A stretch of 64,000 bases of DNA from Gammaproteobacteria bacterium (GTDB lineage: Bacteria > Pseudomonadota > Gammaproteobacteria > Ga0077536). The stretch's first letter is position 1. Each line of letters starts with the position of its first letter. The stretch is from NCBI GenBank assembly GCA_963662545.2, contig CAXXLL010000003.1, positions 2,304,001 to 2,368,000 of the forward strand, written 5' to 3'. Positions 5,207 to 62,811 of this stretch are shown piece by piece. The notes below the pieces were generated by a model that saw only the letters and a list, made by a program, of their open reading frames with translations, ran no database searches and was not told where the DNA came from. The position numbers and the translations under genes were made by a program.

Positions 5207-6717
5207 GGGTAACCTCCCGTAAATGATCGTAGCGATCAACATTGGCTTGGGGCTCTTCAATCAAGCTCAGTCCGGCCGGTGCGTCGATGCGCGCTGGTGC
5301 GGTTGTTTCGAGCAACCGATTGAGGATATTGATAACGTGTTGCTTCGAAGGCGCGCCAGTTTCAAGCGCGAGTTCGACGGCACACAGCACCGTCTGCTCG
5401 TCGTGGTGCAAGACCAACGCCAAAACCTCGACCATCTCGCGATCGCCACCAGGGCGCTTGAGTCGTGTTGATTGGAGACGTTTGAACCCGTCAGGGAGCT
5501 CGGCAAAGGGAGCCCCATTACGCAACGCGCCCGGCTTGCGTTGCACCACGGCCAAATAATGACGCCCGTCGTATAAGACTTGCGCGGTGCGGTCATGACC
5601 CTGCGAGAACAGCCTGGGATGTTCGACGACTTTGCTACCTTCAGCGACAATCACGAGTCGATTCGCATAAACGCGTAGACTCACGGCGTGGTTCGCGAAT
5701 GCAGCCGGCACACGGTAACGATTGCGCTCGAACGCGATCAAACAGGTTGGCGACACCCGTTTAGTGTGCTCGATGAATCCATCGAACGGCGGCGGCATCC
5801 GCATCAGTGCTGTTTGCTCATCTACCCAGACCGCGGCGATGGTGCATCGGTTGCTCGGGGTGACGAACCTCATGCCACAGCATCTGACAACGAGCGGCCA
5901 ACCAGGTATTAAGTTCGTCCAGGTCAACAAACTTCGGTGCATCGTGCCAGAACCGTGACCGCGAGTCCCTCACGTTCTTCTCGATCTGGCCCTTCTCCCA
6001 GCCGGCGGCGGGGCTGCAAAATGTCGCCTCGAGTAAGAAGTGGCTGGCCATCGCCTGGAAACGCGCGTTGACCTCGCGGATCTTACCCCGACCAACCCGG
6101 TTCACGGCCGTCTTCATGTTGTCGTAAATACCCCGCTGAGGCACACCGCCCAGCACGGCCAACGCGTGGTTGTGCGCATCGAATAACATCTCGTGCGTTT
6201 GCAGCGGGTAAGCACGTAGGACGAATGCGCGGCTGTAGGAGAGTTTGAAATGCGCGATCATGAGCTTGCGGCGCTCGCCGCCGATCACTGCCCAGTCTTC
6301 GGACCAATCAAACTGAAAAGCCTCTCCCGGCTCGAACACCAACGGGACAAACGTCCCACGGGCCGCCTTTACCCCCTCTTGGCGCCGCGTCCGCCACGCG
6401 CGCGCGAATGCTGCGACCCGGTCGTAGGAACCGCGATATCCCAGATGAACCAAGTCGCCGTAGAGTTGGCGTAAATTACGCCGTTGTTTGCGGCTACGAC
6501 CCGATTCTCGCGTCAGCCACGACGCCAGCGTTTCCGCATCGTCATCTATTTTGCTGGGGGTCGTGCGCTTGGGATACGCAGGCTCCACCTCGCCGCTCGC
6601 CAAATACTTAGCAATCGTGTTCCTGGATAACTTCGTTCGACGGGATATCTCTCGGATCGACTGGCCTTCCCGAAAATGCCAGCGTCTAATAACACTCAAT
6701 AAATCCACGTCCATCAC
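5196..6717 (-). pseudogene. istA: IS21 transposase IstA, frameshifted
   Basis: 2-bp deletion near 5845 relative to the intact copy (GATGGTGCATC vs GATGGTCCGCATC) splits the ORF into 5818-6717 and 5196-5942. Confidence 0.92.
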
Positions 6718-20750: not shown

Positions 20751-21176
20751 TTAGAAGGGTGCTTTGCCCACCTCCCATGTGGGCAAATAGTCACTGGCCA
20801 CATAGCCCTGTGCGCACTCATTCCGCAAGTATCTGTAAGCTTCGGCCCGTTCTTCCGGTGGTAACCCCGTTACGGCCTTTTCTGTTTCCCATGCTTGCTT
20901 GTTGAAGTTCTCGCCCTCTAGCTCACTGTGAAGCTCAATTGCAGCGTCATCGATATTGGCAATATCTGCGCCCTGGTCTTCTGCCAGTTGATACATGCAA
21001 GGCATCCACACCCACGAAAAAAATTCCCCTCTGTAATCCGTGTCCGCAAGGCTTGGTGCGGTGAGCGGTATGGATAGAGCAAGCAGAACAATTGTCCTTT
21101 TGCCAAGATGCACCATCTTTTTGAGCAAACACCGCTTCACGGGGCTAACCAGTGGCTTTAGTAAGAACCTCGACAA
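20751..21176 (-). CDS. Hypothetical exported protein
   Basis: Signal-like KRTIVLLALSIPLTAPSLA; two Cys; start uncertain. Confidence 0.5.
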   Translation of the reverse strand: MSRFLLKPLVSPVKRCLLKKMVHLGKRTIVLLALSIPLTAPSLADTDYRGEFFSWVWMPCMYQLAEDQGADIANIDDAAIELHSELEGENFNKQAWETEKAVTGLPPEERAEAYRYLRNECAQGYVASDYLPTWEVGKAPF

Positions 21177-21227
21177 GAGTGCCGCGATGGTAAACTTGTT
21201 GTTCCTCCACTTACAACTTCTGTCTTA

Positions 21228-21381
21228 TTCATAAGACGCTCGGCGTAACGCCAGCGATGGAGACCGGTATTACCGATACTCTGCGTGACATGGAATGGAT
21301 CGTCGGCCTGATTGATGCTCGTGCTTCAAAGCCTAACCGCCCCAAGATCTACAAAAAGCGCACCGTCGAAGCCGCCCGATG
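21228..21381 (+). mobile_element. IS1-family transposase C-terminal remnant
   Basis: Manual translation HKTLGVTPAMETGITD...PNRPKIYKKR. Confidence 0.55.
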
Positions 21382-33987: not shown

Positions 33988-34078
33988 TGGCGGAGAGGGA
34001 GGGATTCGAACCCCCGGAACGCGCTAAGCGTTCAACTGATTTCGAGTCAGCCCCATTCGACCACTCTGGCACCTCTCC
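33988..34078 (-). tRNA. tRNA-Ser(CGA)
   Basis: GGAGAGG..GCTGA-CT-CGA-AA-TCAGT, long variable arm, GGTTCGAATCC, encoded CCA end. Confidence 0.97.
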
Positions 34079-34610
34079 TGAAACTTTGTACCTTGTCATA
34101 ACAGCGTCGCTACGCAACGCCGTTCAACTGATTGGATTCGCAAACGAAGGATCGTTTGCTCACCCCTGCGGGGCGCCTGCGCTTCGCTGCGGCGTCCAAC
34201 TTCGCGTTTCGAAGTTGTCGAGTCAGCCCCATTCGACCACTCTGGCACCTCTCCTGAAATTTTAGGTGCTAATAAACCAGCGCTGCTCCGCAACGCCGTT
34301 CAACTGATTGGATTCGCAAACGAAGGATCGTTTGCTCACCCCTGCGGGGCGCCTGCGCTCCGCTGCGGCGTCCAACTTCGCGTTTCGAAGTTGTCGAGTC
34401 AGCCCCATTCGACCACTCTGGCACCTCTCCTGAAATTTTATGTGCTAATAAACCAGCGCCGCTACGCAACGCCGTTCAACTGATTCGATTCGCAAACGAA
34501 GGATCGTTTGCTCACCCCTGCGGGGCGCCTGCGCTCCGCTGCGGCGTCCAACTTCGCGTTTCGAAGTTGTCGAGTCAGCCCCATTCGACCACTCTGGCAC
34601 CTCTCCTGAA
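34079..34610 (-). repeat. Three tandem 176-bp tRNA-Ser-derived units, each with an 84-nt insertion after the anticodon
   Basis: tRNA 5' ends at 34254, 34430 and 34606; inserts at 34134-34217, 34310-34393 and 34486-34569. Confidence 0.93.
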
Positions 34611-34699
34611 AACCTTGTGCATTTCTTAAGGTTCTCTTCCCCCGCATTCTGCGAAATGCATGTGGCGTCCCCTTATTGGGACGAGCTGTTGCGCTTTAA

Positions 34700-40688: not shown

Positions 40689-42095
40689 TCATGATCGCCT
40701 TGGCAGGTAAAGATCGGTGATCGTGCCACTGTAGGCTTCGGCCGCCATCGCGACCGTCTCGGATAGGGTCGGATGGGGATGCACAGTCAGACCGATGTCT
40801 TCCGCGTCGCAGCCCATCTCGATCGCGAGCGCCACTTCGGCGATGAGATCGCCCGCATTGGGCCCGACGATGCCGGCGCCGACGACGCGGCCGTCGTCGG
40901 TATCGAAAAGGAGCTTGGTCAATCCGTCGTTACGACCGAGTGAGAGCGAGCGTCCGCTCGCGGCCCACGGGAAAACCCCCTTGCCGACTTCGATGCCCTG
41001 GGCTTGCGCCTCGGTTTCGGTGAGCCCGGCCCAGGCCACTTCCGGATCGGTATAGGCCACCGAGGGAATGACGCGTGCGTCGAATGCGACCTTGTGCCCG
41101 GCCGCCACTTCGGCCGCGACCTTACCTTCGTGCGTGGCCTTGTGCGCGAGCATGGGCTCACCGACGATATCGCCGATCGCAAAGATGTGCTGAACGTTCG
41201 TCCGCATGGTCTTGTCGACGAGAACAAAGCCGCGCTCGTCGAGCGCGATGCCTGCCTCTTCGGCGCCGATGCGATCGCCGTTCGGCCGACGGCCCACGGC
41301 GACGAGGATCTGGTCGTAAGACGTTTCCGCCGGCGCGCGCTCGCCCTCGAACGACGCCGTCAACGATGCACCGGTCACGGTCACGCCGGTGACGCGGGTA
41401 CCGGTGTGGACCGCTTCGAGCCGCTTGGCGAGCCGTCTTTCGAGTGGCTTGACGAGATCGCGGTCAGCGCCGAGCATGAGTTCATCCATCAATTCCACGA
41501 CGGTGACCTGCGATCCGAGCTCCATGAAAACCGTCGCCATTTCCAGGCCGATGATGCCGCCCCCGATAACGAGCAGACGCCCCGGTATGCCGGTGAGTTC
41601 GAGCGCGCCGGTTGAATCGATCACGCGTGGATCGTCGTAGGGGATCCCCGGCAGTCGCGCGGGCTCCGATCCCGCCGCGATGATCGCTTGCTTGAATTCG
41701 ATGGTGACCGTACCGCCACTGCTCTCGACTTCGACGCGATTGGGGGAGGTGAAACGGCCGGTGCCGCGTACCACTTCGACCGTGCGCTGCTTAGCGAGCC
41801 CTTCCAGCCCCTTGGTCAACTGGCCGACGATCTTGTCCTTCCAAGCACGCAGCAGATCGAGATCGATTTCGGGCTCGGCGAAGCGGATTCCCTTGGGTGC
41901 CATGTCGCGCGCGTCGCTGACCACCTTGGCCGCATGCAGCAGTGCTTTCGAGGGAATACAACCGACATTCAGGCACACACCGCCCAGCCTCGCAAAACGT
42001 TCGACCAGAATTACCTGTAATCCGAGGTCGGCTGCGCGAAACGCTGCGGTATAACCGCCCGGCCCGGATCCCAGGACCACCAGATCGGCGTTCAT
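40689..42095 (-). CDS. lpdA: Dihydrolipoyl dehydrogenase
   Basis: GSGPGG, GGVCLNVGCIPSK, HPHPTLSE. Confidence 0.96.
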   Translation of the reverse strand: MNADLVVLGSGPGGYTAAFRAADLGLQVILVERFARLGGVCLNVGCIPSKALLHAAKVVSDARDMAPKGIRFAEPEIDLDLLRAWKDKIVGQLTKGLEGLAKQRTVEVVRGTGRFTSPNRVEVESSGGTVTIEFKQAIIAAGSEPARLPGIPYDDPRVIDSTGALELTGIPGRLLVIGGGIIGLEMATVFMELGSQVTVVELMDELMLGADRDLVKPLERRLAKRLEAVHTGTRVTGVTVTGASLTASFEGERAPAETSYDQILVAVGRRPNGDRIGAEEAGIALDERGFVLVDKTMRTNVQHIFAIGDIVGEPMLAHKATHEGKVAAEVAAGHKVAFDARVIPSVAYTDPEVAWAGLTETEAQAQGIEVGKGVFPWAASGRSLSLGRNDGLTKLLFDTDDGRVVGAGIVGPNAGDLIAEVALAIEMGCDAEDIGLTVHPHPTLSETVAMAAEAYSGTITDLYLPRRS

Positions 42096-42297
42096 CGTCC
42101 ACTCCTTTCGCGCTGCAGATAATGTGATCGTACCCGCAGGCTGCGCTTTTTATTGGCTTTGAGCATAAGGGATTCGTTGCACTTTCGTCCGGCGGCATCA
42201 TTTCACAAAATAACGGCTCGTGCCCATGTGAAATGGTCACCAGTTGTCGACCGCGAAAATCGTCGCGGTCTGTACCCATCCATAAACGTCAATATTT

Positions 42298-42390
42298 CTC
42301 TCGCCAAGGTGCAAAGACGCCAAGATAGCAGCGAGTATAATTTCAATAACAATTACTCGTCACTTTGCGACCTTTGCGTGTTAGCGAGAG
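42298..42390. repeat. REP-like imperfect inverted repeat
   Basis: CTCTCGCCAAGGTGCAAAGACGCCAAG ... CTTTGCGACCTTTGCGTGTTAGCGAGAG with inner CGAGTA/TACTCG stem. Confidence 0.6.
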
Positions 42391-42433
42391 TTATGCTTTC
42401 TGGCTGGACAGTAGCCAGCGTCAACTGCTCGCC

Positions 42434-43837
42434 ATGAGTTATGCGCGCACAGAACAAACCTTAATGAACTGCGATAGCGCCGACATTCACCACAAGGCAC
42501 CGCCACCCGGTCGCGCGATCGGAGCCGTGCGGGACAACATCGTTGCCGGCTGTCGGCTGTCGCTCGCCCGCCGAGTCGCGCGCTCCGACTTTCGCGCCTC
42601 ATTCGGTCACCTGCTGTTCGCTCTGATTTTGAGCGGGTGCGCAACGGTGCTCGTACACCGCATCGAGGCCGGCGCTGGATCGCTCTTCTGGATATGGGGT
42701 TTCATCAGTACCTCGGCGAAACTCCAAGTATGGCTGGCGGTGCTGGCCGTAATCGCCTGGCGATCGGTCGGAACTGGCGCGTTCGTGACACTCGTAACGG
42801 TCATCGTCTACGCGAGCCTGCCACTGTGGCTCGTGACGTTCGCGCTCCAGGCCGTTGCTGATCTCCATGCGCCGTATGTCACGATATACGCCTATTGCGT
42901 GCTGCTCTGGCACCTCGCCATATTCTGGCGAGCGTTTCGCCTTTTGCCGTCCGTCGGAATATCGCAGACCATGGGTGCACTCGTGCTGTATTGCGCAGCG
43001 CTCTTCGTCATCACCGATCTTTTGCCGGACTCGCGGATGTTCTATCAGCAGACCGCGTCGGCGCCGGGTCTCGATATTGAATCCATTTATTACCGGCAAA
43101 CCGCGCTGCTCGATCGTGAACTCGATGCGCTCGCACCGGAAATACCCGCGCGCGCCGACGTCTATTTCGTGGGCGTCGGGGCCTTCGCGTCACAGGATGT
43201 GTTCATGCGTGAGGTAAAACAGGTTAGAAACCTCTTCGAGGGGCCTTTAGGCCTCGTAGGTCGCGCGGTTTCCCTGGTCAACAACCCGGCTACTGTGTGG
43301 AACACGCCGCTGGCCAACCTGCACAATCTCGAACGCGCGACCGCACACTTGAGCGGGATAATGAATGTTGATGAGGACATTCTGTTTTTGTTCGTCACCT
43401 CGCACGGTAACGAAGATACCTCGGTCGCGGTCGATTTCGAAGACCTCGGGCTGAACGACATATATGCCGGCGATATTCGCGCCGCGCTGGACACAGCCGG
43501 GATCCGCTGGCGAGTCGTCGTGGTCTCAGCCTGCTATTCAGGCGGCTTTATCGATGAATTAAAGACATCCGACACCCTCGTGATCACCGCCGCGGCGCGG
43601 GACCGGGCCTCGTTCGGCTGTAGCCACGAAAATAACTGGACGTATTTCGGGCGGGCTTATTTCGAACAAGCGCTCCTCCAGACGCGGGATTTCGTCGAAG
43701 CCTTCGAAGTGGCGCGCGCCATTATCTCCAAACGGGAGCGTGACGAAGGCAAACAAGCTTCGAAGCCGCAGATTTGGGCGGGCGACGCGATCGCGCAGCA
43801 TCTGAAAGATTGGCAGCCGCTGGCGGAGATGCGTTAA
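42434..43837 (+). CDS. Membrane-anchored peptidase C13 family protein (start uncertain)
   Basis: N-terminal TM helices; LFVTSHG and VVSACYSGGF His-Cys dyad. Confidence 0.88.
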   Translation: MSYARTEQTLMNCDSADIHHKAPPPGRAIGAVRDNIVAGCRLSLARRVARSDFRASFGHLLFALILSGCATVLVHRIEAGAGSLFWIWGFISTSAKLQVWLAVLAVIAWRSVGTGAFVTLVTVIVYASLPLWLVTFALQAVADLHAPYVTIYAYCVLLWHLAIFWRAFRLLPSVGISQTMGALVLYCAALFVITDLLPDSRMFYQQTASAPGLDIESIYYRQTALLDRELDALAPEIPARADVYFVGVGAFASQDVFMREVKQVRNLFEGPLGLVGRAVSLVNNPATVWNTPLANLHNLERATAHLSGIMNVDEDILFLFVTSHGNEDTSVAVDFEDLGLNDIYAGDIRAALDTAGIRWRVVVVSACYSGGFIDELKTSDTLVITAAARDRASFGCSHENNWTYFGRAYFEQALLQTRDFVEAFEVARAIISKRERDEGKQASKPQIWAGDAIAQHLKDWQPLAEMR

Positions 43838-44250
43838 CCCCCGCCGAACATCTTCCTCAGGTTGTCCATCCCTGCCTGGTAGACCTCCTGGACCGCCGAC
43901 GATGCGTCAATTTCTGAAGCGCCGCTCGGATCGAACTCACTCGACCATTCGAGCACGGATTTTCCGGCGCCATCGTCTTTGACGCGCAGGGTCGCGGTGT
44001 AGTTTGCCACCGGTAGCGGGCTGCTGACGATGCTGTAGCGGTAGAGACGATCACCTTCCTCGATCTGTTCGAGGCGTTCGACGATCTCGCCGCCGCCGAA
44101 CAGGGCAAGCCGGCGAACTCGGCCATCGTCCTCGAGTTTGCTGCTGGTCACAGCCGGATGCCAGTCGGGCAACGCGTTGAACTGCCCGATGAGTTTCCAC
44201 AATTCATCCGGGTCCATGTTTATTTCAGATTTCATCGAGACTTTAGCCAT
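43834..44250 (-). CDS. SRPBCC (polyketide cyclase/dehydrase-like) protein
   Basis: W..IG.F..LPDWHP, E.L, Y.Y.I...PLPV.NY. Confidence 0.88.
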   Translation of the reverse strand: MAKVSMKSEINMDPDELWKLIGQFNALPDWHPAVTSSKLEDDGRVRRLALFGGGEIVERLEQIEEGDRLYRYSIVSSPLPVANYTATLRVKDDGAGKSVLEWSSEFDPSGASEIDASSAVQEVYQAGMDNLRKMFGGG

Positions 44251-44401
44251 GGGTGTTTCCCTTTGTCGTTCATCGTTTTCTGCGATTTAGACATTGCGCC
44301 GCCCGCGAGCGCGGTGCCGAGACGCTATGCGTGCCTTATGAATACTATAGAATATGTAAAGGAGAACAGCGTCAATTAGTGATGCCTTAGGATCACATCA
44401 G

Positions 44402-44599
44402 ATGAGTACTAAACCCCGGGAAATCAAGATCGTAGACGATGACATAGAGGACGTCGGCTGTGATGGGGGCGCGGCCGCCCTCGGCCATCCCTTGATCTAC
44501 CTGCCGTTCACAAGCCGCAACTACGTCGATTGCTATTACTGCGGTCAACGCTTTGCGAAATCGGGCTATGAAAAGCCCGATGACACGGCCGGCGTCTGA
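44402..44599 (+). CDS. zf-CHCC zinc-finger protein
   Basis: CDGG..ALGHP..YL...CYYC. Confidence 0.85.
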
Positions 44600-44613
44600 G
44601 ACCGGCACCTGCC

Positions 44614-44889
44614 ATGCGAGCATTGCACTACCCGGTCTGCTGGTTGATCAACGGTTACCAGTGGTTGATCTCACCCGTGCTCGGGCCCCACTGCCGGCAC
44701 CTCCCCACTTGCTCCGAATTCGCGCTCGAGGCGTTCGAACGACACGGCCTCTGGCGCGGCGCCGCCTTGAGCATCGGCCGCCTCCTGCGCTGTCATCCAT
44801 GGGGGACGAGCGGCTACGATCCGGTCCCCGAAGTTCGTGTTACGTGTGAAAAAAGCAAGGCGCGTGTGTCGTCGCGATTGACCGAATAA
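44614..44889 (+). CDS. yidD: Membrane protein insertion efficiency factor
   Basis: YQ..ISP....[21 protein letters not shown]. Confidence 0.9.
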
Positions 44890-44971
44890 AATATTCGCCC
44901 GCAAGCGGGCTCCTACCTCCGAATCATTCATTTCGTGCTCGCCATCCATGGCGCTCTGCCAGAAAAATCCC

Positions 44972-45490
44972 CTAGTTCGCCCGATCAAAGTCGACCATCT
45001 CGCGTTCAATACCGCGTTGCTTGAGCCAGTCCTGTAATGCTTTGCCCGTACCGGCCGTCCATGGCTTGACCTCTTCGACGTGCACCCACTTGTGGTCGGC
45101 GATCTCCTCGGTGCAAAGCGTAACTTCCTTCGATTCGACGGTTAAGTGGTAGGCAATGATGAGTTGATTGCGGCGATAGAACTCGTACATACCGATGTAC
45201 GACTGCATTTCCGCCTGCAAACCGATCTCTTCTTCGATCTCGCGGGCAATCCCTTCTTCCGGCATTTCCCCGGACTCGAGAAAACCCGTGACGAGCCCAT
45301 ACCAGTGCTGCGGCCATCCGACGTTTCTAACCAGCACCACATGATCGTCGTGTTCAACGATCGCTGCGACGACGGGGACCGGATTATCCCAATGCACGAA
45401 TCCACATTGCCCATCCGGACAAGCCAGGCGTTCGCGGCCCGACAGGGGCAGGCGCATGAGGGGTGATCCGCAATAGGGACAATATTTCAT
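44972..45490 (-). CDS. NUDIX hydrolase with N-terminal Zn ribbon
   Basis: CPYCG..C..C; Nudix box GFLESGE....IAREIEEEIG. Confidence 0.9.
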   Translation of the reverse strand: MKYCPYCGSPLMRLPLSGRERLACPDGQCGFVHWDNPVPVVAAIVEHDDHVVLVRNVGWPQHWYGLVTGFLESGEMPEEGIAREIEEEIGLQAEMQSYIGMYEFYRRNQLIIAYHLTVESKEVTLCTEEIADHKWVHVEEVKPWTAGTGKALQDWLKQRGIEREMVDFDRAN

Positions 45491-45539
45491 CGGGGGCTAC
45501 CTTTTTTAATGGGTGTCCATTCGGGAAGAATATTAATGT

Positions 45540-47621
45540 TTATGGATGGACACTACTCAACGGTTGGAGATAAACGCCGCTCACACCAATCCGCTGCGGT
45601 CCATTCTCAGGCGATGATGCCGCGGATTCGAACTGAATGAAGCTGTCGAGGCCGATCGTCACCTCGCCGATTGGCGTCAACCGTGGGCTTACGGTGCCCG
45701 CCCGAACCGATCCGTTCTCGATCGAATGCCGCTTACCGCCGAGGATCACGGAAAAATCTCCATAAGAGTCTGCGCGCGTGCTGGCGACATCCACGCGGTA
45801 TCTGCCCGGTGCGACGCCGGTCAGCGGCGCCCGTAGCCACTGTGCCGGCGCGTTGAATTCGATTTCCAGATAACGGCTGCCCGGCCAAGACGCGGTCGCC
45901 GGCCGAGATGCGACGTGAACGCCGCCGCCCGTACTCAAGTGCCCGAACCCATCCAGGGCGTGAAAGTTTGTTTGATCGTGGGGCGCCGAGCGGTACGCCG
46001 CCGCAGCGCCGGCCATCACCACGAGCGCGAGGACGAGCGCGACGCCGTTCCAGCGAGCGGTCGCCAGGTTCTGGGTCTTTTTCAAAGCGCACCACGCCAG
46101 CACCACCACCGAACACGCCAGGATCGCGAGCATCACGCGGCTGGACTGGAACGAGACGCTGAAATAGCCGGGCTCGTAGCCTAGTTCGCGCTGGAAGGGA
46201 ATGGACACGACGCGGAGCGACGCCATCCCTAGCACGAGGACGGCCATGAGGGAGGCCCGGGTTTCGCGCTCAATGCGCCACGCCGCGAGCGGCAGCAGCG
46301 CGAGAAATACATAGTAGTAAATGAAAGGCGAGAACACGGTGAATACCGCGACCGAGCCGAGCAACACCGTCGCCGCCATGGGATCGCGTCCGCGTACGGC
46401 CATCACGGTCGACACCAGCAGTGCGAGCCCCAGGAACTCCCGGAACGGACCGAACGACGCCGCGTCGTGCTGGATGGCCCCGAGCCACGCGTTCATCGCG
46501 TTCAGAGCGTCGGCAGCGCCCTCGAACGATGGCCATACCAGTACATTCCAGAAACTCGCGACTTTGAGCAGACCGATCGAATTGCTGCCGTAGGGGTTGA
46601 TTCGCACCTGCAGCACCTCGACAAACTCATACCAGACCCCAGGCCCGAACATGATCAACGATAGCGCCCCGAAGGCTATGCCGCCCGCCACGCCGGCCGC
46701 ACACACTCGCAATAAGCCACCGCGCAGGTTGGGTTTCCCAAGCGCCAGCACCAGCACCGCGCTGAGTGCGAATACCACCGGGAACGCGCGGCACACCACC
46801 GCAATTGCGAGCAGGAAACCGGCCAACGCAAACCGCCTGACGGCCAGCGCGATCACGCCGCCGGTGAGCGCGGCGTACCAGTCGGCACGAAAGTAGCTGC
46901 CGCCGGTCCAACCGAGATTGGCGAGGGGACTGGCGAAGTAAAACAGGAGATAGGCAAGCGTGGGTACTAACCCAAAGGCGCGATACACCACTAAGGGCAA
47001 CACGACGAGGAGCAAGACCTGGTCGATCAAGGGCAGCCAAATGAGCGCCTCGGCGTTGAGCGGCACCCGGTTGGCGACAAACGACGCGGCGACGTTCCAT
47101 CCGGGCGGTGAATTATTGCCGAGATCGTTCAACATGGGGCGCCAGGTTTGGTCGCTCGCATCGTGTGCCAGTAGCACGGCGAGGTCGTCCTTGAACCGCG
47201 CCCAGCGTGCCGCGGCAAACGAATCGCGGCATTGCGCGGCTTTCGCATCGAGCGCTGCACCGACTACGATCTCTGACGGCCGGTCGAGCGACCGCGAGAA
47301 GGTGACCGACGGCACGTCGTGGCCCTCGCGTTCGAGTTCGTCCAACGCGGCATGGGTGCAGAGATAAAGCCGCATGTGTCCGACTTCCCGATAGTACTTA
47401 GCGCCGACGTAATAATGATAGAAATCGTGCAGATGCAGCCAGCGTTCGGGTTTCTGCGTGAGCCAAGAATTGAAGTAGACGACCGCCATGATCGCCACCG
47501 TGAGCATGGCGCCGGCCTTCAATCCGCGCAGCAGTGGTACGGAACGCACGGACGGCGCATACAGCGTCGCCAGGCAGGCGCCGCCCGCCAGGAATACTAG
47601 GGTTTCGCCGTAATAAGGCAT
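45540..47621 (-). CDS. Polytopic membrane protein, probable GT-C-fold glycosyltransferase
   Basis: Many TM helices, HDFYHYY after the first loop, N.PP.W motif, soluble C-terminal domain; downstream of the ubiA-like gene. Confidence 0.65.
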   Translation of the reverse strand: MPYYGETLVFLAGGACLATLYAPSVRSVPLLRGLKAGAMLTVAIMAVVYFNSWLTQKPERWLHLHDFYHYYVGAKYYREVGHMRLYLCTHAALDELEREGHDVPSVTFSRSLDRPSEIVVGAALDAKAAQCRDSFAAARWARFKDDLAVLLAHDASDQTWRPMLNDLGNNSPPGWNVAASFVANRVPLNAEALIWLPLIDQVLLLVVLPLVVYRAFGLVPTLAYLLFYFASPLANLGWTGGSYFRADWYAALTGGVIALAVRRFALAGFLLAIAVVCRAFPVVFALSAVLVLALGKPNLRGGLLRVCAAGVAGGIAFGALSLIMFGPGVWYEFVEVLQVRINPYGSNSIGLLKVASFWNVLVWPSFEGAADALNAMNAWLGAIQHDAASFGPFREFLGLALLVSTVMAVRGRDPMAATVLLGSVAVFTVFSPFIYYYVFLALLPLAAWRIERETRASLMAVLVLGMASLRVVSIPFQRELGYEPGYFSVSFQSSRVMLAILACSVVVLAWCALKKTQNLATARWNGVALVLALVVMAGAAAAYRSAPHDQTNFHALDGFGHLSTGGGVHVASRPATASWPGSRYLEIEFNAPAQWLRAPLTGVAPGRYRVDVASTRADSYGDFSVILGGKRHSIENGSVRAGTVSPRLTPIGEVTIGLDSFIQFESAASSPENGPQRIGVSGVYLQPLSSVHP

Positions 47622-47751
47622 CGACAAAATAGAGAAACGCGAAATGGAGTCAGAACAAACTAAGGGCAACGCATTTCGACATGGGCCGGTGAGTTGCCAT
47701 TAGTTTTCTTTGGCCCATTTATCCTCCAAGGTCTCGTTGCGGCCGGTTGCG

Positions 47752-48618
47752 TCAACCGGCGCTGATCGCCCAGACGCAGGTTGCCAGCCACACTGCGATC
47801 GTCACCATTAACTGCCAATCACCGAGGAGCGCGTCGCTAGGCGATTCCCCGGCCTTGCGACATTCAACCAGCCAGCCGTAACGAAACAGGCCAAAGAGCA
47901 CGATAGGAATCGTGAAGACGAGTTCCGGGCGCGTCGACATGACGAACAGGCTGTAGAAAACCAGCGCCCCGGTCGCCGCTGTCTGCGCGTAGCGATCCAG
48001 CAGGGGCATGGTGTACTGCTTCAAGACATCCCGCCCCGTGGCCTCATTCAGATTCAGCTCCTGGCGCCGTTTGATCGTCGCGAGGTAAAGCGCGAGGCAC
48101 AAGCTTGTGACGAACATCCAGGCCGAAACGGGTACCGCGATTGCCTGCGCGCCCGCGTACACCCGCATGACGAATCCGATGGATATCGAAAAGATATCGA
48201 CGACGGGTTGCTTCTGCAGGAACCAGGTATGGGCGATGTTGAGCCCGATATAACAGAGCACCACCTGCATGAACGCCGGCTTCAATACGTAGGCGCCGAG
48301 GATAATGCCGTACAAAACGACGAGTACCAGTATTGCGTCGCGCGTTCCGATGATCCCGGCCGCCAGCGGACGCTTGCGCGCTTTGACCGGATGCATACGG
48401 TCTTCGTCGACGTCGTGAATATCGTTCAACACGTAGACGGACGAAGAGGCGATGCAGAACAATACGAACGCCGCAACAGCGCGCATGATCGAGGCGGGGT
48501 CGAAGAACGCTCCGGCGAAAACAAGCGGCGCGAGTACGAACGCATTCTTGACCCATTCGCGAGGCCGCAGCAACGCGACGAACCCTGCAGCGCGCGATGG
48601 AGTATTGAGTTCGGCCAC
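47752..48618 (-). CDS. Decaprenyl-phosphate phosphoribosyltransferase (UbiA family)
   Basis: LRP.EWVKN, NDIHDVDEDRMHPVK..RPLAAG, KRRQE; start uncertain. Confidence 0.9.
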   Translation of the reverse strand: MAELNTPSRAAGFVALLRPREWVKNAFVLAPLVFAGAFFDPASIMRAVAAFVLFCIASSSVYVLNDIHDVDEDRMHPVKARKRPLAAGIIGTRDAILVLVVLYGIILGAYVLKPAFMQVVLCYIGLNIAHTWFLQKQPVVDIFSISIGFVMRVYAGAQAIAVPVSAWMFVTSLCLALYLATIKRRQELNLNEATGRDVLKQYTMPLLDRYAQTAATGALVFYSLFVMSTRPELVFTIPIVLFGLFRYGWLVECRKAGESPSDALLGDWQLMVTIAVWLATCVWAISAG

Positions 48619-48619
48619 T

Positions 48620-48707
48620 GGAAAAAAGGGGTCGGAGTCAATTAATGACAACGTGCAATTCGATATTCGATCGCATTGCTATTAATTGACTCCGACCCCT
48701 TTTTTCC
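48620..48707. repeat. 88-bp REP-doublet/MITE-like element with perfect 27-bp inverted arms
   Basis: GGAAAAAAGGGGTCGGAGTCAATTAAT ... ATTAATTGACTCCGACCCCTTTTTTCC. Confidence 0.9.
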
Positions 48708-48783
48708 CGAAGGGACATATCCTACCGGCGGGCGCTATTATAGCTGGTGAAGAAATCAGTCGGGGCCGAGCGAAAAAAAAGCG

Positions 48784-50085
48784 ATGCGACTAGCCGGTTG
48801 GGGACGGTACCCGTCAAGCGAAGTGCGGGTTACCGCGATCAGGACACGGGACGATCTCGCGCGCACCTTGCGGCAGGCAAACGGTCCCTGCATCGCGCGC
48901 GGCATGGGGCGCAGCTACGGTGATTCAAGCCTGGCGCCGCACGTTATCGACTTGAGGCGGCACGATCATTTCCTGAACTTCGATTCGGATCGGGGCACCA
49001 TACGCTGCGGTGCCGGCGCGACCCTTGCCGCTCTTTTGGACATCGTTGTGCCGCGCGGCTGGTTCCTCCCCGTCACTCCGGGCACCGGTTTCGTCAGCGT
49101 CGGTGGCGCCATCGCCAGCGACGTGCACGGTAAGAATCATCACCGCGACGGCTCTTTCGCGGACTTCGTCGAAAGTCTTCTTCTGATGATGCCGAATGGT
49201 GAACTCGTCACCTGCTCAAGTGAAGAAAATGCCGAGCTGTTCCATGCGGCGGCAGGCGGCATGGGGCTCAGCGGCATCATCGTCGACGCCGTCCTGAAAC
49301 TCAGACGCATCCGGAGTAGCTTTGTTGACGAGCGTATCGTCAAGACCAGCGACCTCCACGACACCCTCGCCTGTCTCGACGAACATGGCGAAGCGACCTA
49401 CGTCGTCGCGTGGCTCGACGCGAACAAGCGCGGCGCGGCGCGCGGCCGCGCGCTCGTTATGATCGGCGAACACGCTCAAGACGATGACTTCGAGGTGCAC
49501 CGCAAGCCGCACGCGCGAATTCCCTTCGACCTGCCCTCGATGTGTTTGAACAGCCTCGTCATGCGGCTTTTCAACGCGCTCTACTACGAGCGCATTCGTA
49601 CTCGCATGACCACGCGTAGGACTCATTACGAACCGTATTTCTACCCGCTCGATCGTCTCCGCGACTGGAATCGGCTGTACGGTCGGGCGGGCCTTCTGCA
49701 GCACCAATCCGTGGTCCCGCGCACATCGGCTAGAGAAGCCATTGAGGAGCTGCTCTCTTGCGTTGCCACCAGCGGTCTTGGTTCGCCGCTGTCGGTATTA
49801 AAGGCCCTTGGTGAGGGCAATCAAAATTATCTTTCCTTTCCCCGTGCAGGCTATACCTTGACGATGGACTTCAAGCGCAGCGACACGGCCTTGGCGTTGA
49901 TGGGGCGGCTCGACGACATCGTGCTCGCACACGGCGGGCGGATGTATCTGGCCAAGGACGCCTGCATGAGCGAATCGACCTTCAAGCGCAGCTACCCGGC
50001 CTGGGAAGTTTTTCAAACCGTACGCGAACGACACGGCGCACTGGGTCGGTTCAGTTCACTGCAGGCACAGCGTCTGGGTCTATAG
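48784..50085 (+). CDS. DprE1-like FAD-binding oxidoreductase
   Basis: GWGR, ARGMGRSYGD, PGT..VSVGGAIASDVHGKNHH, YLAKD. Confidence 0.92.
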   Translation: MRLAGWGRYPSSEVRVTAIRTRDDLARTLRQANGPCIARGMGRSYGDSSLAPHVIDLRRHDHFLNFDSDRGTIRCGAGATLAALLDIVVPRGWFLPVTPGTGFVSVGGAIASDVHGKNHHRDGSFADFVESLLLMMPNGELVTCSSEENAELFHAAAGGMGLSGIIVDAVLKLRRIRSSFVDERIVKTSDLHDTLACLDEHGEATYVVAWLDANKRGAARGRALVMIGEHAQDDDFEVHRKPHARIPFDLPSMCLNSLVMRLFNALYYERIRTRMTTRRTHYEPYFYPLDRLRDWNRLYGRAGLLQHQSVVPRTSAREAIEELLSCVATSGLGSPLSVLKALGEGNQNYLSFPRAGYTLTMDFKRSDTALALMGRLDDIVLAHGGRMYLAKDACMSESTFKRSYPAWEVFQTVRERHGALGRFSSLQAQRLGL

Positions 50086-50317
50086 TGCGCTGTCCCGTAA
50101 TAAGCCTTCATAATTCGCTGGTCCTCGTGCCGCGCTACGGCGTTGCTCGTCGTTGCCGTATTGCGGATACCATCCATGGCATCCGCCCTTCGGGCCCGCC
50201 TGCGGCGGTCCAAATTCGTTCCGGACGAATTTGTCCCGATACGACGCCTCCTCGCGCCTTGTATCGCACCACGAGTCCTGCGCGATTTATTGAAGTTTAT
50301 TACGGGACAGCACACTA
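50083..50317. mobile_element. 235-bp MITE with 21-bp terminal IRs and a nested multi-hairpin element
   Basis: TAGTGCGCTGTCCCGTAATAA / TTATTACGGGACAGCACACTA (20/21 match); nested element ~50163-50235. Confidence 0.85.
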
Positions 50318-50319
50318 GC

Positions 50320-51057
50320 ATGCAGAAGATTCTCATCATCGGCGCGACCTCCGCCATCGCGGAAGCGACCGCCCGGCTCTACGCGCGCCGCGGCGATACC
50401 CTCTACCTCGTGGCGCGCAACGAAGAGCGGCTGGCGGGAATAGCGAACGACCTCGCAATACGCGGCGCGCATAAAGTAGAAACCGCCGCGTTCGATATTC
50501 TCGAACACGAACGCCACCGAGCGCTGCTGGAGCGCGCCGCCGAAACCATGGACGGGATCGATGTCATTCTCGTCGCGCATGGAATCCTGCCCGATCAAGC
50601 GGCCTGCGAAAAGGACCCCGAGCGGATGCGCGACGCGTTCGAGGTCAATGCGCTCGGCACGATGTCGCTGCTGACCTTGGTCGCGAACGTGCTAGAGGCG
50701 CAGGGATCTGGCACCCTGGCCGTGATCGGTTCGGTGGCGGGAGATCGCGGCCGCAAGAGCAACTATGTATACGGTGCCTCGAAGGCGGCCCTCCATACCT
50801 TCCTGCAAGGGCTGCGCAACCGGCTCGCGGGCCAGGGCATCAAGGTAATCACGATCAAACCCGGCTTTGTCGATACGCCCATGACCGCGGCATTCGAAAA
50901 AGGACCCCTGTGGGCTGCGCCCGAGACGATCGCGGCCGGCATTGTAAATGCGATAGAGAACGGCCGGGATGTAGTCTACCTGCCCTGGTTTTGGCGCCTC
51001 ATCATGCTGGTGGTCGGGACCATCCCCGAACCGCTGTTCAAACGTTTGTCGCTTTGA
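50320..51057 (+). CDS. DprE2-like short-chain dehydrogenase
   Basis: GATSAIA, SVAGDRGRKSNYVYGASK, KPGFVDTPMT; follows the dprE1-like gene. Confidence 0.9.
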   Translation: MQKILIIGATSAIAEATARLYARRGDTLYLVARNEERLAGIANDLAIRGAHKVETAAFDILEHERHRALLERAAETMDGIDVILVAHGILPDQAACEKDPERMRDAFEVNALGTMSLLTLVANVLEAQGSGTLAVIGSVAGDRGRKSNYVYGASKAALHTFLQGLRNRLAGQGIKVITIKPGFVDTPMTAAFEKGPLWAAPETIAAGIVNAIENGRDVVYLPWFWRLIMLVVGTIPEPLFKRLSL

Positions 51058-53680
51058 AGGCGGGGGTGGACTCTGATTCGCCCGCCAACTGGCGACATGC
51101 CCAGGACGCAAAGGCTTCCGGTGGCAGGGGCTTCGCGAACAGATAACCCTGCCCCTTGACGCAGCCTTCGCCGATCAGGAATGCGCGCTGTGCTTCCGTT
51201 TCGACGCCTTCTGCGATCACCTCGAGACGCAGGCTGTCACCTAGCGCGATCACGGCGCGCGTGATCGCCATGTCATCGGAATCGTCCGGAATATCGCGCA
51301 CAAAGGACCGATCGATCTTGATCTTGTTGATCGGCAGGCGCTTTAAATAAGCGAGCGAGGAGTAACCAGTGCCAAAATCATCGACGCTTAGCGACACGCC
51401 GAGATCACGCAGACCTTCCAGTGTTTCGATGGCGGCGTCGGCTTCGCGCATGATAAAGCCCTCGGTCACCTCGAGTTCCAGGTGCTCGGGCGGCAGTCCC
51501 GTCGCATCGAGGGCCTTCTCGCAGGTCTCGAGCAGGTCGCCCCGGCTGATCTGGGGGCCGGCGATGTTCACCGCAATCCGCTTGAGCGACAGCCCCACTT
51601 CGAGCCACGATTTCGCCTGACGGCAGGCCTCATTCAATACCCATTCGCCGATCGGCACGATCAGGCCTGATTCCTCCGCCATCGGAATGAAGCGGTACGG
51701 GGGGATCAGTCCTTTTCCCGGATGTTCCCACCGGATGAGTGCTTCTGCCCCGATCAGCTCACCCGTGAGCATGTCGATTTGCGGCTGATAATACAGGACG
51801 AATTGATCGCGTTGCAGGGCCTTGTGCAGGTTCTGTTCGAGCTGCATGCGTTCCAGGGCTTCACTCGTCATCGCCTCGGTATAAACAGCGAATGCATTGC
51901 GGCCCCGGCCCTTGGCTTTATACATCGCGGCGTCCGCATTGCGCAGCAACACGTCGATCGATTCGCCGTCGCGGGGATATATGCTGATCCCGATGCTGGG
52001 TGTGACATGCAGCTCCCGTCCTTCGATTTCGAACGGCTCGTCGAACGCGCTCAGGATCTTCTCTGCAACGCGCGTCGCGTGCAGGAGTGATGTAATGTCC
52101 TCCAGCAGCAGGGTGAACTCGTCCCCGCCGATACGCGCGACCGTGTCCTCCAGTCGGACGCATTGTCGCAAGCGCGCTGCCGCTTGTATCAGTAACTCGT
52201 CGCCCGCGTAATGCCCGAGGCTGTCGTTGATATTCTTAAAATGATCGAGATCGAGGAACAACAAAGCACCGCTGCTTGAGCGCCGCTTGGCACGTTCGAG
52301 CGCCAGTTCCAGACGCACGGCAAGGTATAGGCGATTCGGCAGTCCGGTGAGCGGGTCGTGGTGTGCGAGTTCCTCCAGTTCCGCCTGGGAGCGCTTGAGA
52401 TCGGTGATGTCCTGGCCGACACCGATGATCTCGAGCAGCTTGCCGTCATCGTCGTAACGGTTGACCGACGTCCACGATATGACTCGCGACTCGCCGGATT
52501 CGGTCTCGATGGTCATTTCGTAGTTCTTGACGCCGTCGGTCACGTCAAATATCCGAAACAGCCGCTCGACCTGCGCATACTTATCACCGGGGTAAACGAT
52601 GCGCCAGAAATTCTTGCCCAATATCTGCTCGCGCGTATATCCGCTGATCCGGCAGCCGCTATCGTTGATCGACACACAGATACCGTCGGGATCGAGGCCG
52701 ACGATATAAGACGGCGAATTCTGAACGATGTGCGCGGTATATTCCTTGAGCGCCCGAGTTTCCTCCAGCGTATGCCGCAATTTTTTCTGCTGCTCGATAT
52801 CGTCGGTAACGTCCTGAACCGTACCGATGGACCGTATGGCCGCGCCGGTTTTGTCATAGTGCGTGTCAAATTGAGCGCGGAGATGCTTGATCCGTCCGTC
52901 CGGGAAGGGGAAGCGGCAAATAACATCGTAGGGTCGCCTGGATTCGCGATGTTCGGTAAACGCCCGATCGACCTTGTCGCGGTCCTCGGGATGGATCAAC
53001 TCGAGTAACTCCTGAAAGGAATTCATCGTACGTTCCCAATCGAGCTCGAGAATCGCCTCGGTTTCCTTCGAAAACCAGAAGCTGTCGTTCTCCAGATCCA
53101 GTTCCCAACCGCCGATATGCGCGACCCGCTGGGCTTCTTCGAGGCGCGCCTCGCTTTTGATCAATTCTTCTTCGGCGCGTTTGCGCTCGGTCACGTCCAC
53201 GCCGATGCCGATGATTTCCACGAGTTCTCCCGACTCGCTGAACCGATTGACCGAGTTCCAGGAGATGATGCGCGACTCGCCCGATTTCGTCTCGATTTCG
53301 AGTTCGTAATCCCAAACGTTACCATCACGATCGAAATCGAAGACGAGCTGTTCAAGCTGCCGGTATTTATCGCCGGGATAGATGATGGACCACCAGTTCT
53401 TGCCGATCAGCTCTTCGCGGTCGTGACCTGTGATTCGGCACCCCGCATCGTTAATGGAAACCGTCGAACCGTCAGGCGCGATGCTCACGATCACGGAGGG
53501 TGAATGCTGGATGATGTGCTCGGTATAACTGCCGACCTCGGTCGAACGGCGGGACCCGAGCCCGAAAAGCGAAGGAAAAGAAAATTTGGGCGCAGACTCC
53601 TTACCGCCATCATCCGACCAGGCGTTCACGTGTGGCACGGTGATGAGCGTTGAGGCGAGTTTGCGATTGGGCGAGGACAT
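51038..53680 (-). CDS. Triple-PAS GGDEF-EAL protein
   Basis: Three PAS/PAC repeats, GGDEF, EAL, DDFGTGYSS. Confidence 0.95.
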   Translation of the reverse strand: MSSPNRKLASTLITVPHVNAWSDDGGKESAPKFSFPSLFGLGSRRSTEVGSYTEHIIQHSPSVIVSIAPDGSTVSINDAGCRITGHDREELIGKNWWSIIYPGDKYRQLEQLVFDFDRDGNVWDYELEIETKSGESRIISWNSVNRFSESGELVEIIGIGVDVTERKRAEEELIKSEARLEEAQRVAHIGGWELDLENDSFWFSKETEAILELDWERTMNSFQELLELIHPEDRDKVDRAFTEHRESRRPYDVICRFPFPDGRIKHLRAQFDTHYDKTGAAIRSIGTVQDVTDDIEQQKKLRHTLEETRALKEYTAHIVQNSPSYIVGLDPDGICVSINDSGCRISGYTREQILGKNFWRIVYPGDKYAQVERLFRIFDVTDGVKNYEMTIETESGESRVISWTSVNRYDDDGKLLEIIGVGQDITDLKRSQAELEELAHHDPLTGLPNRLYLAVRLELALERAKRRSSSGALLFLDLDHFKNINDSLGHYAGDELLIQAAARLRQCVRLEDTVARIGGDEFTLLLEDITSLLHATRVAEKILSAFDEPFEIEGRELHVTPSIGISIYPRDGESIDVLLRNADAAMYKAKGRGRNAFAVYTEAMTSEALERMQLEQNLHKALQRDQFVLYYQPQIDMLTGELIGAEALIRWEHPGKGLIPPYRFIPMAEESGLIVPIGEWVLNEACRQAKSWLEVGLSLKRIAVNIAGPQISRGDLLETCEKALDATGLPPEHLELEVTEGFIMREADAAIETLEGLRDLGVSLSVDDFGTGYSSLAYLKRLPINKIKIDRSFVRDIPDDSDDMAITRAVIALGDSLRLEVIAEGVETEAQRAFLIGEGCVKGQGYLFAKPLPPEAFASWACRQLAGESESTPAFKATNV

Positions 53681-61898: not shown

Positions 61899-61994
61899 CG
61901 ACGCTATATTCTCTTTACTTAACGGTCCGTCTCCGGCTATCGGCTGAGCGTGATATTTCTTGAACGGAACCGATGGTTCGGCATGAGGCAGTAT

Positions 61995-62811
61995 TTAGGG
62001 GACATTCATGTTTTTCCCATTTTTTTGCTCGACTTACGACTTACGGGGTCGCCCCCGCGGCCGAATACTGGCTTCCAAACCAAGTTCTTCTGCGACTTTG
62101 AGCCGCCATGCTTGGTGGCCGAATGGTCGGCCACGCACCACACATTCGCGAATCGCCTCAACCTCTTCGGTGGTCTGAGGCGCGTTTACAAATTCAATCC
62201 AATCTGCGGCGCAAGCTTCGGGAGCCATCTCGCTCAACAAACTCCGTCGCACTGTCATTCCTGCGCTCAGGCTGGACCACGGCCAAGATTCTGCCGTGTT
62301 GCTCAAACGTGCTCGAAGAGGATTACGCTCAACGTATCGCAAAACTGTCAGTAGATGTCGATCCTGTTCAATGGGAAACGCTTTGAATCGCCCCTGCCAT
62401 ATTCGGCCATCTGTCCCATACTTTTTGTGATATCTCCTTACATGAGCCGTCATAAGCCGTTGCATCCATCGACTGAGATCCCCGTCGCCGAATGGGTACA
62501 AGATGAAATGAAAATGGTTCGGCATGAGACAGTAGCCAAGCACGCGCATCGGTACCTTGGCGCTCGACCGTGCCATGAGGTCTACAAAAGCCTGATAATC
62601 ACTTGGATGATGAAATACGCGCGCGCGGCGGTTACCACGGTTTATAACGTGGTAGCAGGTCCCTCCGACCGAAGCGCGTGCCGTCCGTGGCATCTCGCAA
62701 GCTTACCAAAAACCTGCTCAGATTTTAGGGGACAATCATCATTTTCATGCGCCTAACCTTCGAAAAGATGAATGTCCCCATTAATACGGCTTCGAAAAGA
62801 TGAATGTCCCC
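61995..62811. repeat. GGGGACA(T/A)TCAT / ATGAATGTCCCC repeats flanking the RAYT gene
   Basis: Copies at ~61998 and ~62728; inverted 22-bp tandem copies CTTCGAAAAGATGAATGTCCCC at 62758-62779 and 62790-62811. Confidence 0.85.
62034..62693 (-). CDS. REP-associated tyrosine (Y1 HUH) transposase, RAYT-like
   Basis: MPR.AR, YHVINRGN, CLMPNHFH, WQGRF, YVERNP, WPWSS, RPRGRP tail. Confidence 0.92.
   Translation of the reverse strand: MPRTARASVGGTCYHVINRGNRRARVFHHPSDYQAFVDLMARSSAKVPMRVLGYCLMPNHFHFILYPFGDGDLSRWMQRLMTAHVRRYHKKYGTDGRIWQGRFKAFPIEQDRHLLTVLRYVERNPLRARLSNTAESWPWSSLSAGMTVRRSLLSEMAPEACAADWIEFVNAPQTTEEVEAIRECVVRGRPFGHQAWRLKVAEELGLEASIRPRGRPRKS

Follow-up and report, generated by a model that had tools for sequence, protein, structure and literature searches.

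A gene-less, four-hairpin element of about 72 nucleotides in MITEs, ERIC repeats, IS91-family genes and tRNA-like loops of Proteobacteria

The element described here lies in a stretch of 64,000 nucleotides of a gammaproteobacterial genome (the window; positions 2304001–2368000 of contig 3 in genome G000, which comprises 5.58 Mb at 58% G+C). An intergenic region of the window, which runs from the stop codon at 50083 to the start codon at 50321, is occupied by a palindromic transposable element of the miniature inverted-repeat kind (a MITE), here called MITE-A (50083..50317, no strand assigned). As delimited from the sequence and an alignment of 11 copies, MITE-A measures 235 bp when filled and 163 bp without its insert; its inverted ends are 21 nt long and of the type TAGTG(C/T)GCTGTCCCGTAATAA. 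At its centre is a nested mini-element of 72 nt (50163..50234, + strand) with four hairpins, the ends of which are fixed to within one position, as one ambiguous T also allows 50162–50233. Three further inserts, of 84 nt each, are found in tRNA-like sequences of the same window. The sequences of the MITE insert and of the tRNA copies read exactly as spelled out in a preliminary description of this DNA, which had proposed that both belong to a structure-conserved, non-autonomous family of about 75–85 nt.

When the 235-bp MITE-A was used as a BLAST query, five copies in the genome were found to lack exactly these 72 nt, with positions 1–80 fused to 152–236. Among the other copies, which include that of the window, two carried one element, two carried several nested elements and two were partial. 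The empty junction reads GCCGTATT^CCCGATACG (^ marks the point of insertion) and contains one ambiguous T and zero duplication. The observation of the preliminary description is confirmed: the empty MITE alleles for which it had proposed to look exist, and they show no target duplication, in agreement with its remark that none was clear. The element begins NAT and finishes TTTGT, with neither the inverted ends nor the target duplication of a classical MITE; its insertion was precise without either. The orthologous intergenic region of a second genome of the genus (G002) is without the entire MITE-A. At this locus (L191, contig 36 of G002, compared with window positions 50040–50360) an unrelated intergenic sequence of approximately 70–85 nt replaces MITE-A, and its ends, TAGTGTGC...GAACACTA, resemble those of MITE-A. 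The stretch or part of it was contained in 20 of 22 listed rows of public sequencing runs, from nine studies and in every case as contigs, and four of the runs were aligned; a single row, registered as RNA, contained no more than a minor share of the stretch. Contigs from these runs included a 72-nt skip from 50161 to 50234 that stemmed from other, empty MITE-A copies; the skip-bearing contigs were deeper (65.6 and 31.2 compared with about 11 and 7.5) and differed from the window copy. Near-identical DNA to positions 42000–51500 (97–99% of sampled words) was present in runs of four studies bearing four organism labels, with partial matches in sponge, sediment and marine-sediment metagenomes.

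The three tRNA-type copies are located beside an intact tRNA-Ser(CGA) gene (33988..34078, - strand), which was called by ARAGORN and scored 54.8 bits against the Rfam tRNA family, and which was the single tRNA found in the window by either method. Three tandem 176-bp units (34079..34613, - strand; 98–100% identity between units) adjoin it upstream and share its orientation, each made up of the upstream flank, some 50 nt from the 5' part of tRNA-Ser(CGA), the insert and a spacer of 42 nt. Their pseudo-tRNA portions lie at about 34121–34254, 34297–34430 and 34473–34606, and the inserts at 34135..34218, 34311..34394 and 34487..34570, all on the + strand; each occupies the anticodon loop of its pseudo-tRNA-Ser, the first copy being antisense to the tRNA. 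Because only one tRNA was called, and because the tRNA homology stops where the variable arm begins, with the T arm absent, the interrupted "tRNAs" are truncated pseudo-copies. The earlier proposal of tRNA anticodon loops as hosts therefore stands for the loop and fails for a working tRNA. The intact gene provides the uninterrupted reference for the site, its + strand reading CTGATT^TCGAG. Elsewhere in the genome, relatives of the tRNA insert occupy the T loops of decayed tRNA copies that adjoin intact tRNA-Arg(ACG), tRNA-Ser(UGA) and tRNA-Gln genes, and one decayed copy holds three elements, one of them nested in reverse within the last hairpin of another. There are two occurrences of the tRNA-Ser(UGA) gene with an upstream interrupted pseudo-copy, inverted relative to each other and separated by about 15 kb (G000 contig 3, approximately 5600–5980 and 20980–21240), so that the arrangement is either a composite element or an inverted duplication of large size.

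The secondary structure of the element was examined on both types of copy. Both strands of both elements folded better than 200 of 200 shuffled sequences, with z values of -4.3 to -5.3. The loop of the first hairpin is conserved as (A/G)TCC(N)T, the second is a fixed CCC-TTC-GGG mini-hairpin, the third is variable with a triloop, and the fourth has a T(C/T)CAA...TTGT stem with a TCCNG loop. This structure was written by hand on 23 distinct non-tRNA copies, among which 92.8% of pair cells were paired, compared with 33–44% when the partners were slid. Changes on both sides were present in 15 of the 24 pairs, and the covariation observed was reached by none of 500 shuffles. The structure of the element is under selection. 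An iterative profile search gave 74 matches at E values up to 1, and a 31-sequence alignment contained intermediate subfamilies that connect the MITE type with the tRNA type, with compensatory changes in 15 of the 20 pairs predicted by RNAalifold. The decamer shared by the two types was not significant by itself (16 matches against 12.9 expected).

The relationship between the two types was measured with a covariance model, R1, built from the 23 non-tRNA copies and containing no tRNA-type copy in its training set. R1 recovered the three tRNA inserts at full length and with exactly the predicted ends, at 24.3 bits each (E 4.5e-5 in the window); as these inserts are copies of one another they count as a single independent test. 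Another tRNA-type copy scored 35.4 bits. The nested element of MITE-A, itself a training member, scored 81.1 bits (E 1.3e-20). At least 65 R1 matches were obtained in this genome with 150 of 2341 candidates scored, and matches were present in 61 of 101 related genomes, including the unpublished G099: in 41 of 60 genomes of the same family and in about half of the class's other families. The covariance model thus finds the additional copies that the preliminary description had foreseen.

A pattern scan over one genome per species returned at least 118 stretches, 80 of which were then tested with R1. By a rough estimate so short a pattern may give a few hundred chance matches in the collection, and each of these loci was checked with R1 for that reason. 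R1 matched 74 of the 80 named-genome loci at E values up to 0.01, mostly at full length, and six had no match, including those from a Bacillota and a Rhizobiaceae metagenome-assembled genome (MAG). The carriers comprise enterobacteria (Pectobacterium, Serratia, Yersinia, Klebsiella spallanzanii, Sodalis and Budvicia), marine gammaproteobacteria (Paraglaciecola, Alteromonas, Shewanella, Rheinheimera and Marinomonas), Thioalkalivibrio, Mariprofundus and, among others, MAGs of Desulfuromonadales, Desulfobacteraceae and Magnetococcales. Insertions in T loops recur in several of the named genomes.

The flanks of the enterobacterial copies match the enterobacterial repetitive intergenic consensus (ERIC), the element being inserted at CTGGGGATT^CACTC (consensus as given in Table 1a of PMC2759123). 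The element occupies one and the same ERIC position, GGGGATT^CAC, in Serratia, Yersinia, Pectobacterium, Sodalis and Symbiopectobacterium. The Escherichia coli ERIC insert consists of 71 nt at CTGGGGATT^CACTC; an insert-bearing ERIC is present in 610 of 5426 complete E. coli genomes (at least 80% query cover), where the insert is unannotated. The insert of the rpnC-panC ERIC of E. coli O157:H7 (L175), which was outside the training set, was matched by R1 at full length with 67.5 bits. The window element and the ERIC inserts are therefore one family by direct test with R1. Insertions of approximately 70 bp at fixed internal sites of ERIC, also called intergenic repeat units (IRU), have reportedly been known from the work of Sharp (1997), of Cromie, Collins and Leach (1997) and of Wilson and Sharp (2006). 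To our knowledge these 70-bp inserts were previously described solely as a feature of enterobacterial ERIC and stood for decades without explanation. A full-text literature search, which did not cover the key ERIC-insertion papers, found no description of the family outside ERIC. The elements reported here share their family, their ERIC site and their length of about 70 bp with the ERIC-internal insertions. They differ from those insertions, as reportedly described, in forming an independent family with other hosts (tRNA loops, IS91-family genes, MITEs and the element itself) and a range far beyond the enterobacteria. The ERIC inserts belong to an independent, widespread family of Proteobacteria with defined structure, ends and landing sites; it is not local to this genome.

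Conservation was tallied over 83 copies from many taxa, leaving out the CCC-TTC-GGG and CAAA positions, which had been imposed by the search pattern. TCC was present in both end-hairpin loops in 61–70 of the 83 copies and the final TTTGT in 76–82, with further conservation of A and T at positions 2–3, of the closing C-G pair of hairpin 1 and of the CAA...TTG base of hairpin 4. The inner stems covary. Termini shared among the copies identify a mini-element family rather than generic hairpins, as the preliminary description had supposed from a common terminus, and the non-autonomous, structure-conserved family that it envisaged is real, with a length that is typically 72 nt and reaches 87 nt. 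On the complementary strand the small loops are GAA and GCA, which are unusually stable DNA triloops, and the end loops are GGA.

These GGA loops raise the possibility that the element is retained mainly because it benefits the cell, acting within transcripts as a structural or regulatory module with CsrA/RsmA-like hairpins, or as a stabiliser or terminator. In the complement of 50163–50234 and of most family members, the conserved TCC loops of the first and last hairpins give, for example, CAGGGAUG and CAGGAUG, which resemble CsrA/RsmA binding hairpins. Intergenic and probably transcribed locations such as ERIC would suit such a role, and a very weak match to RsmW was obtained (18 bits, E 0.55). 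That score is not significant, and the tRNA-type subfamily has no TCC loops. Usefulness also leaves the precise present and absent alleles, the nesting and the insertions into transposase genes and pseudo-tRNAs unaccounted for; as it is compatible with mobility, it is less an alternative than an addition. As the full account of the element we regard it as unlikely.

The hosts of the element are unrelated to one another: T and anticodon loops of tRNA copies, three MITE families, three sites in IS91-family genes and the last hairpin of the element itself. Where the original sequence is known the junctions read GGGATT^CGAACC (T loop), CTGATT^TCGAG (anticodon loop), GTATT^CCCGA (MITE-A) and GGGGATT^CAC (ERIC), with zero target duplication at the T-loop, MITE-A and ERIC junctions. 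In the flanks of 80 copies from named genomes T was found at position -1 in 61 and C at +1 in 52. The sites have in common a T-rich 5' flank and, in most cases, a C at the 3' side (TT^C). They often lie in foldable DNA, such as tRNA loops, the tips of the palindromes of MITEs and ERIC and the last hairpin of the element itself, which is entered at AAATT^ to give nested copies. Tandem and nested copies occur where the T-rich end or arm of the element restores a site. The targeting of stem-loops that had been suggested for the family consequently holds for the host loops and not as a rule of loops only, as the 5' arm of another element's last hairpin holds one nested copy and three sites are in IS91 coding sequence. 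A second MITE family, MITE-B, holds one to three tandem copies of 66–67 nt at its centre (GGTTT^...^CGTTAAA), with flanks shared among copies. MITE-B has inverted ends of the TAGCAGCCTGTCGGACTTAGG type and three-hairpin variants of the element, for example at C3:1087790-1088075 and C2:2528465-2528820.

The genome contains 20 matches to PF04986, the IS91-family transposase. One insertion site in these genes follows RVNLTR(F/L) and is filled in ten copies, a second follows AQRVGR(L/F) and is filled in three, and a third is further upstream. The genes are present in both filled and empty form, the uninterrupted sequences reading CGCTTC|CACGG and CGCTTC|CTGGAA. Site-1 elements are 90–100% identical to one another, and the 150-nt flanks on each side are 55–77% identical between lineages. 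Near-identical elements in diverged IS91 flanks indicate that insertion was recent and site-specific. A second subfamily, 71–74% identical, fills the same IS91 codon in one IS91 copy, and the same site is filled in other genera (L037, L039, L041, L043). Either the site has been struck repeatedly or the element has been copied between IS91 genes without their flanks. In this genome IS91 genes are the commonest host (17 of 63 classified copies), and single genes carry two or three elements at different fixed sites (C3:2759396-2760128, C3:2046941-2047594 and C2:724552-724817).

Much of the copy number results from hitchhiking with hosts. In G088, 14 of 15 fetched copies have the common right flank of an ERIC-like MITE and 13 also have the common left flank, the fifteenth (L189) belonging to a different subfamily. 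The MITE-B copies have common flanks, and the IS91 copies at C3:2694827, 2702365 and 2710028 are 99–100% identical in both the element and the left flank. It could accordingly be proposed that the element is a passive passenger that entered a few host repeats (MITEs, ERIC, IS91) once and was then multiplied solely by transposition of the hosts and by gene conversion between host copies. Set against this are the variety of unrelated hosts, which includes the T loops of several tRNA types, an anticodon loop, three MITEs, ERIC, three IS91 sites and the element itself, the near-identity of elements inside IS91 genes whose flanks have diverged, and the occurrence of two subfamilies at one IS91 codon. 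Passive carriage as the sole explanation is rather improbable.

The IS91 inserts also bear on the proposal that the element acts at the level of RNA, either as a reverse-transcribed structured RNA or by an intron-like removal from transcripts. The 72-nt inserts are in frame, and in each of the ten site-1 copies the downstream frame stays open and is conserved, so that removal from the transcript would account for the open frames on either side of the interruption; the covarying stems suit RNA equally well as DNA. Most of the IS91 inserts, however, carry an in-frame TAA or TGA, and since the elements are much more recent than their host genes, splicing is not needed to explain the open frames. 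The tRNAs that hold an insert are decayed or truncated and stand beside intact ones, and the insert is apparently not removed from their RNA. Both orientations relative to host transcription occur, and Rfam gave no ribozyme or intron family match. A length of 72 nt is far below known self-splicing intron sizes. A bacterial group I tRNA intron was considered separately and rejected, there being no Rfam intron match and the hosts being tRNA copies in a truncated or decayed state; an integron attC site and a hammerhead were set aside from inspection of the sequence alone. Rfam returned nothing at gathering score except the tRNA, with weak matches to RF02902 and RsmW. RF02902 (AaHKsRNA22), an expressed Aggregatibacter small RNA (sRNA) family, gave a best genome match of 33.2 bits and 25.8 bits for the window copies, below its cut-off of 39.8. 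These sub-threshold matches are full length and on the minus strand (34123–34226, 34299–34402 and 34475–34578) and run along the four-hairpin order. The match suggests that transcribed relatives of the family exist in Pasteurellaceae; a term search of PMC5909427, on Aggregatibacter sRNA, found no mention of sRNA22 or of repeats. Although this match lends the RNA-level proposal some support, we consider that proposal quite improbable.

The present and absent alleles in MITE-A, ERIC and IS91 identify the element as a discrete unit, and it is very probably mobile at the DNA level. On balance we favour an insertion element of about 72 nt that is non-autonomous and has no gene, its probable mode of movement being as single-stranded DNA (ssDNA) by means of an enzyme of the histidine-hydrophobe-histidine (HUH) type supplied in trans. 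The single-stranded, HUH-type mechanism is suggested by the anatomy alone, that is by the absence of inverted ends and of duplication, by end hairpins with the same loop and by a short T-rich target, and taken by itself we give it slightly less than an even chance. In such a scheme the element would move in a "peel and paste" reaction, and a trans-supplied tyrosine enzyme would bind the two terminal TCC-loop hairpins, as at the ends of IS200/IS605 elements and in the pairing of repetitive extragenic palindromic sequences (REPs) with REP-associated tyrosine transposases (RAYTs). Copies would persist where the harm is small, in pseudo-tRNAs beside intact genes, in mobile elements and in intergenic palindromes, and might then be carried along as their hosts multiply.

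A parallel exists with the ends of IS200/IS605 elements and with their miniature derivatives, the palindrome-associated transposable elements (PATEs), which likewise have no inverted ends or duplication, have hairpins inside both ends and insert by a short specific sequence. The IS200/IS605 mechanism is known from the literature on IS608 and ISDra2, and these elements show replication-strand bias. The family described here differs in having no parent insertion sequence with matching ends, no TnpB, only two truncated tnpA fragments and, by a weak test, no overall strand bias, and in a target of about 3 nt with a junction that is variable at one base.

Several observations weigh against the favoured mechanism. 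No enzyme gene adjoins any copy, and none could be tied to the element. Seven matches to the single-tyrosine (Y1) transposase family PF01797 were found in the genome, five of them full-length RAYT-like genes and two truncated IS200-like tnpA fragments (83 and 79 aa), and the mini-element flanks none of the seven. The genome has zero matches to TnpB (PF07282) and no gene-carrying or split version of the element, all pairs of left and right halves being nested or neighbouring whole copies. Ten of the 61 element-bearing relatives are without a Y1 match, one of them a complete single-contig genome. The orientation of copies relative to replication (29 against 34) has no overall bias, a weak test because the majority of copies are carried by other repeats. 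The conserved TCC loops are absent from the tRNA-type copies, and neither direct movement nor polymorphism at the MITE-A locus was seen in the four aligned public runs. Finally, the junctions are not base-clean: the first three bases differ by subfamily (GAT, TAT, AAT, TAC), and in the anticodon loop as well as in the IS91 genes the base 5' of the element is unlike that of the empty allele. The empty IS91 junction reads TTC or TAC and the filled one TTT, TTG, TAG or TGT (C3:2046941, C3:2759396, L041, L043), and the anticodon-loop junction (window 34133–34135) reads TTT when empty and TTG when filled, as if one base were swapped upon insertion.

The identity of the mobiliser was also approached through the distribution of Y1 genes. 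Element and Y1 occur together in 51 of the 101 genomes; 10 carry the element without Y1, 12 carry Y1 without the element and 28 lack both. The two are positively associated, but genome size and kinship confound the association, and the element can be present where Y1 is absent. By eye, no adjacency of Y1 and element was apparent in the relatives among the first 150 listed matches of each search (element and Y1). The five RAYT-like genes of this genome are each bracketed by their own repeats, in 95, 69, 28, 15 and 14 copies (up to 3 mismatches), and the flanks of the two tnpA fragments are unrelated to the mini-element. The RAYT-like gene at 62034–62693, which the preliminary description had named as one candidate mobiliser, encodes a Y1 HUH protein (PF01797, 51 bits) and lies in the same window. 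That it is the mobiliser is very improbable: it has AT-rich repeats of its own on both sides (GGGGACATTCATCTTTTC and AGGGGACATTCATCTTTTC types; 15 genome copies with up to 3 mismatches), no mini-element adjoins it, and some element-bearing genomes are without any Y1 match. The repeats bracketing this gene, at 61993–62015 and 62720–62811, are inverted and AT-rich (GGGGACATTCAT..., about 15 copies with up to 3 mismatches), and with them the gene looks like a separate REPtron-like unit. The other Y1 genes were rejected as mobilisers, four being full length with their own repeats and two truncated, and the IS91 transposase was rejected by end similarity, the ends of an intact 1874-bp IS91-type element being unlike those of the mini-element.

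Comparison was also made with other families of short palindromic repeats. REPs and the bacterial interspersed mosaic elements (BIMEs) that they form resemble the element in being short, non-coding hairpin repeats, clustered and sometimes inside larger palindromes or genes, as is described for REPs by Di Nocera et al. 2013 (PMC3733652). Movement as ssDNA through a Y1 HUH enzyme is likewise proposed for the REP/RAYT pairing. The element differs from the GTAG class of REPs in having no GTAG and in its four ordered hairpins, compared with the single 20–40 nt hairpin of a REP, and from a REPtron in flanking no RAYT; the genome has a separate GTAG REP family (95 copies) beside its own RAYT. This classical RAYT, with GTAG-tagged REPs of the GATTCGCCCGCAAGCGGGCTCCTAC type (up to 3 mismatches), lies at 129419–129907 of G000 contig 3, and its first bases, GATTCGC, recur at the start of the tRNA-type mini-element.

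A second class, the CGTC-tagged REPs, includes Rickettsia RPE-4/-6 and Neisseria dRS3, and is defined, in PMC3733652, by CGTC (with TGTC and CCTC variants), a stem of 8–9 bp starting from A-T pairs, a loop of 4–5 nt and a CCA tail; no dedicated transposase is reported there for the class. The last hairpin of the element partly fits this class, as it often follows CGTC or TGTT and has an 8–9 bp stem, an A-T-rich base and a 5-nt loop, and both groups make in-frame insertions in genes with no transposase found for either. The YGTY tag takes the form CGTC in subfamilies I and II as well as in tRNA-type copies, and the window copy reads GGTC. The element differs in that the tag is partial, with C at model position 46 in 33 of 83 copies and at position 49 in 20 of 83, in its GT(C) tail in place of CCA and in being a four-hairpin composite. 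The landing of one mobile element in the palindrome of another repeat is also familiar from insertion sequences that target REP hairpins, namely IS1397/ISKpn1 and members of the IS110 family such as ISPpu9 (PMC12288879); these are full-size elements with their own transposases, unlike the gene-less element of 72 nt.

Two traits set the family apart: it favours other mobile elements and tRNA loops as hosts, and it has no known mobiliser. More tentatively, and with less confidence than in the separate mobility of the element, it could be viewed as a hyperparasitic 72-nt element that homes to a few TT^C sites (tRNA loops, IS91 genes and the apices of MITEs and ERIC) across Proteobacteria, whose enzyme is never alongside it and falls outside the recognised REP-RAYT or IS200/IS605 pairings, and whose other strand could scatter CsrA/RsmA-type sites. 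In practical terms the family interrupts tRNA-like sequences and transposase genes, alters the length of the ERIC and MITE repeats that are used in strain typing, and can mislead gene calling by the addition of 24 codons in frame. The mode of movement and the enzyme responsible now become directly testable questions, and if the trans-acting enzyme proves to be new, it would represent a compact DNA insertion system guided by both sequence and structure.

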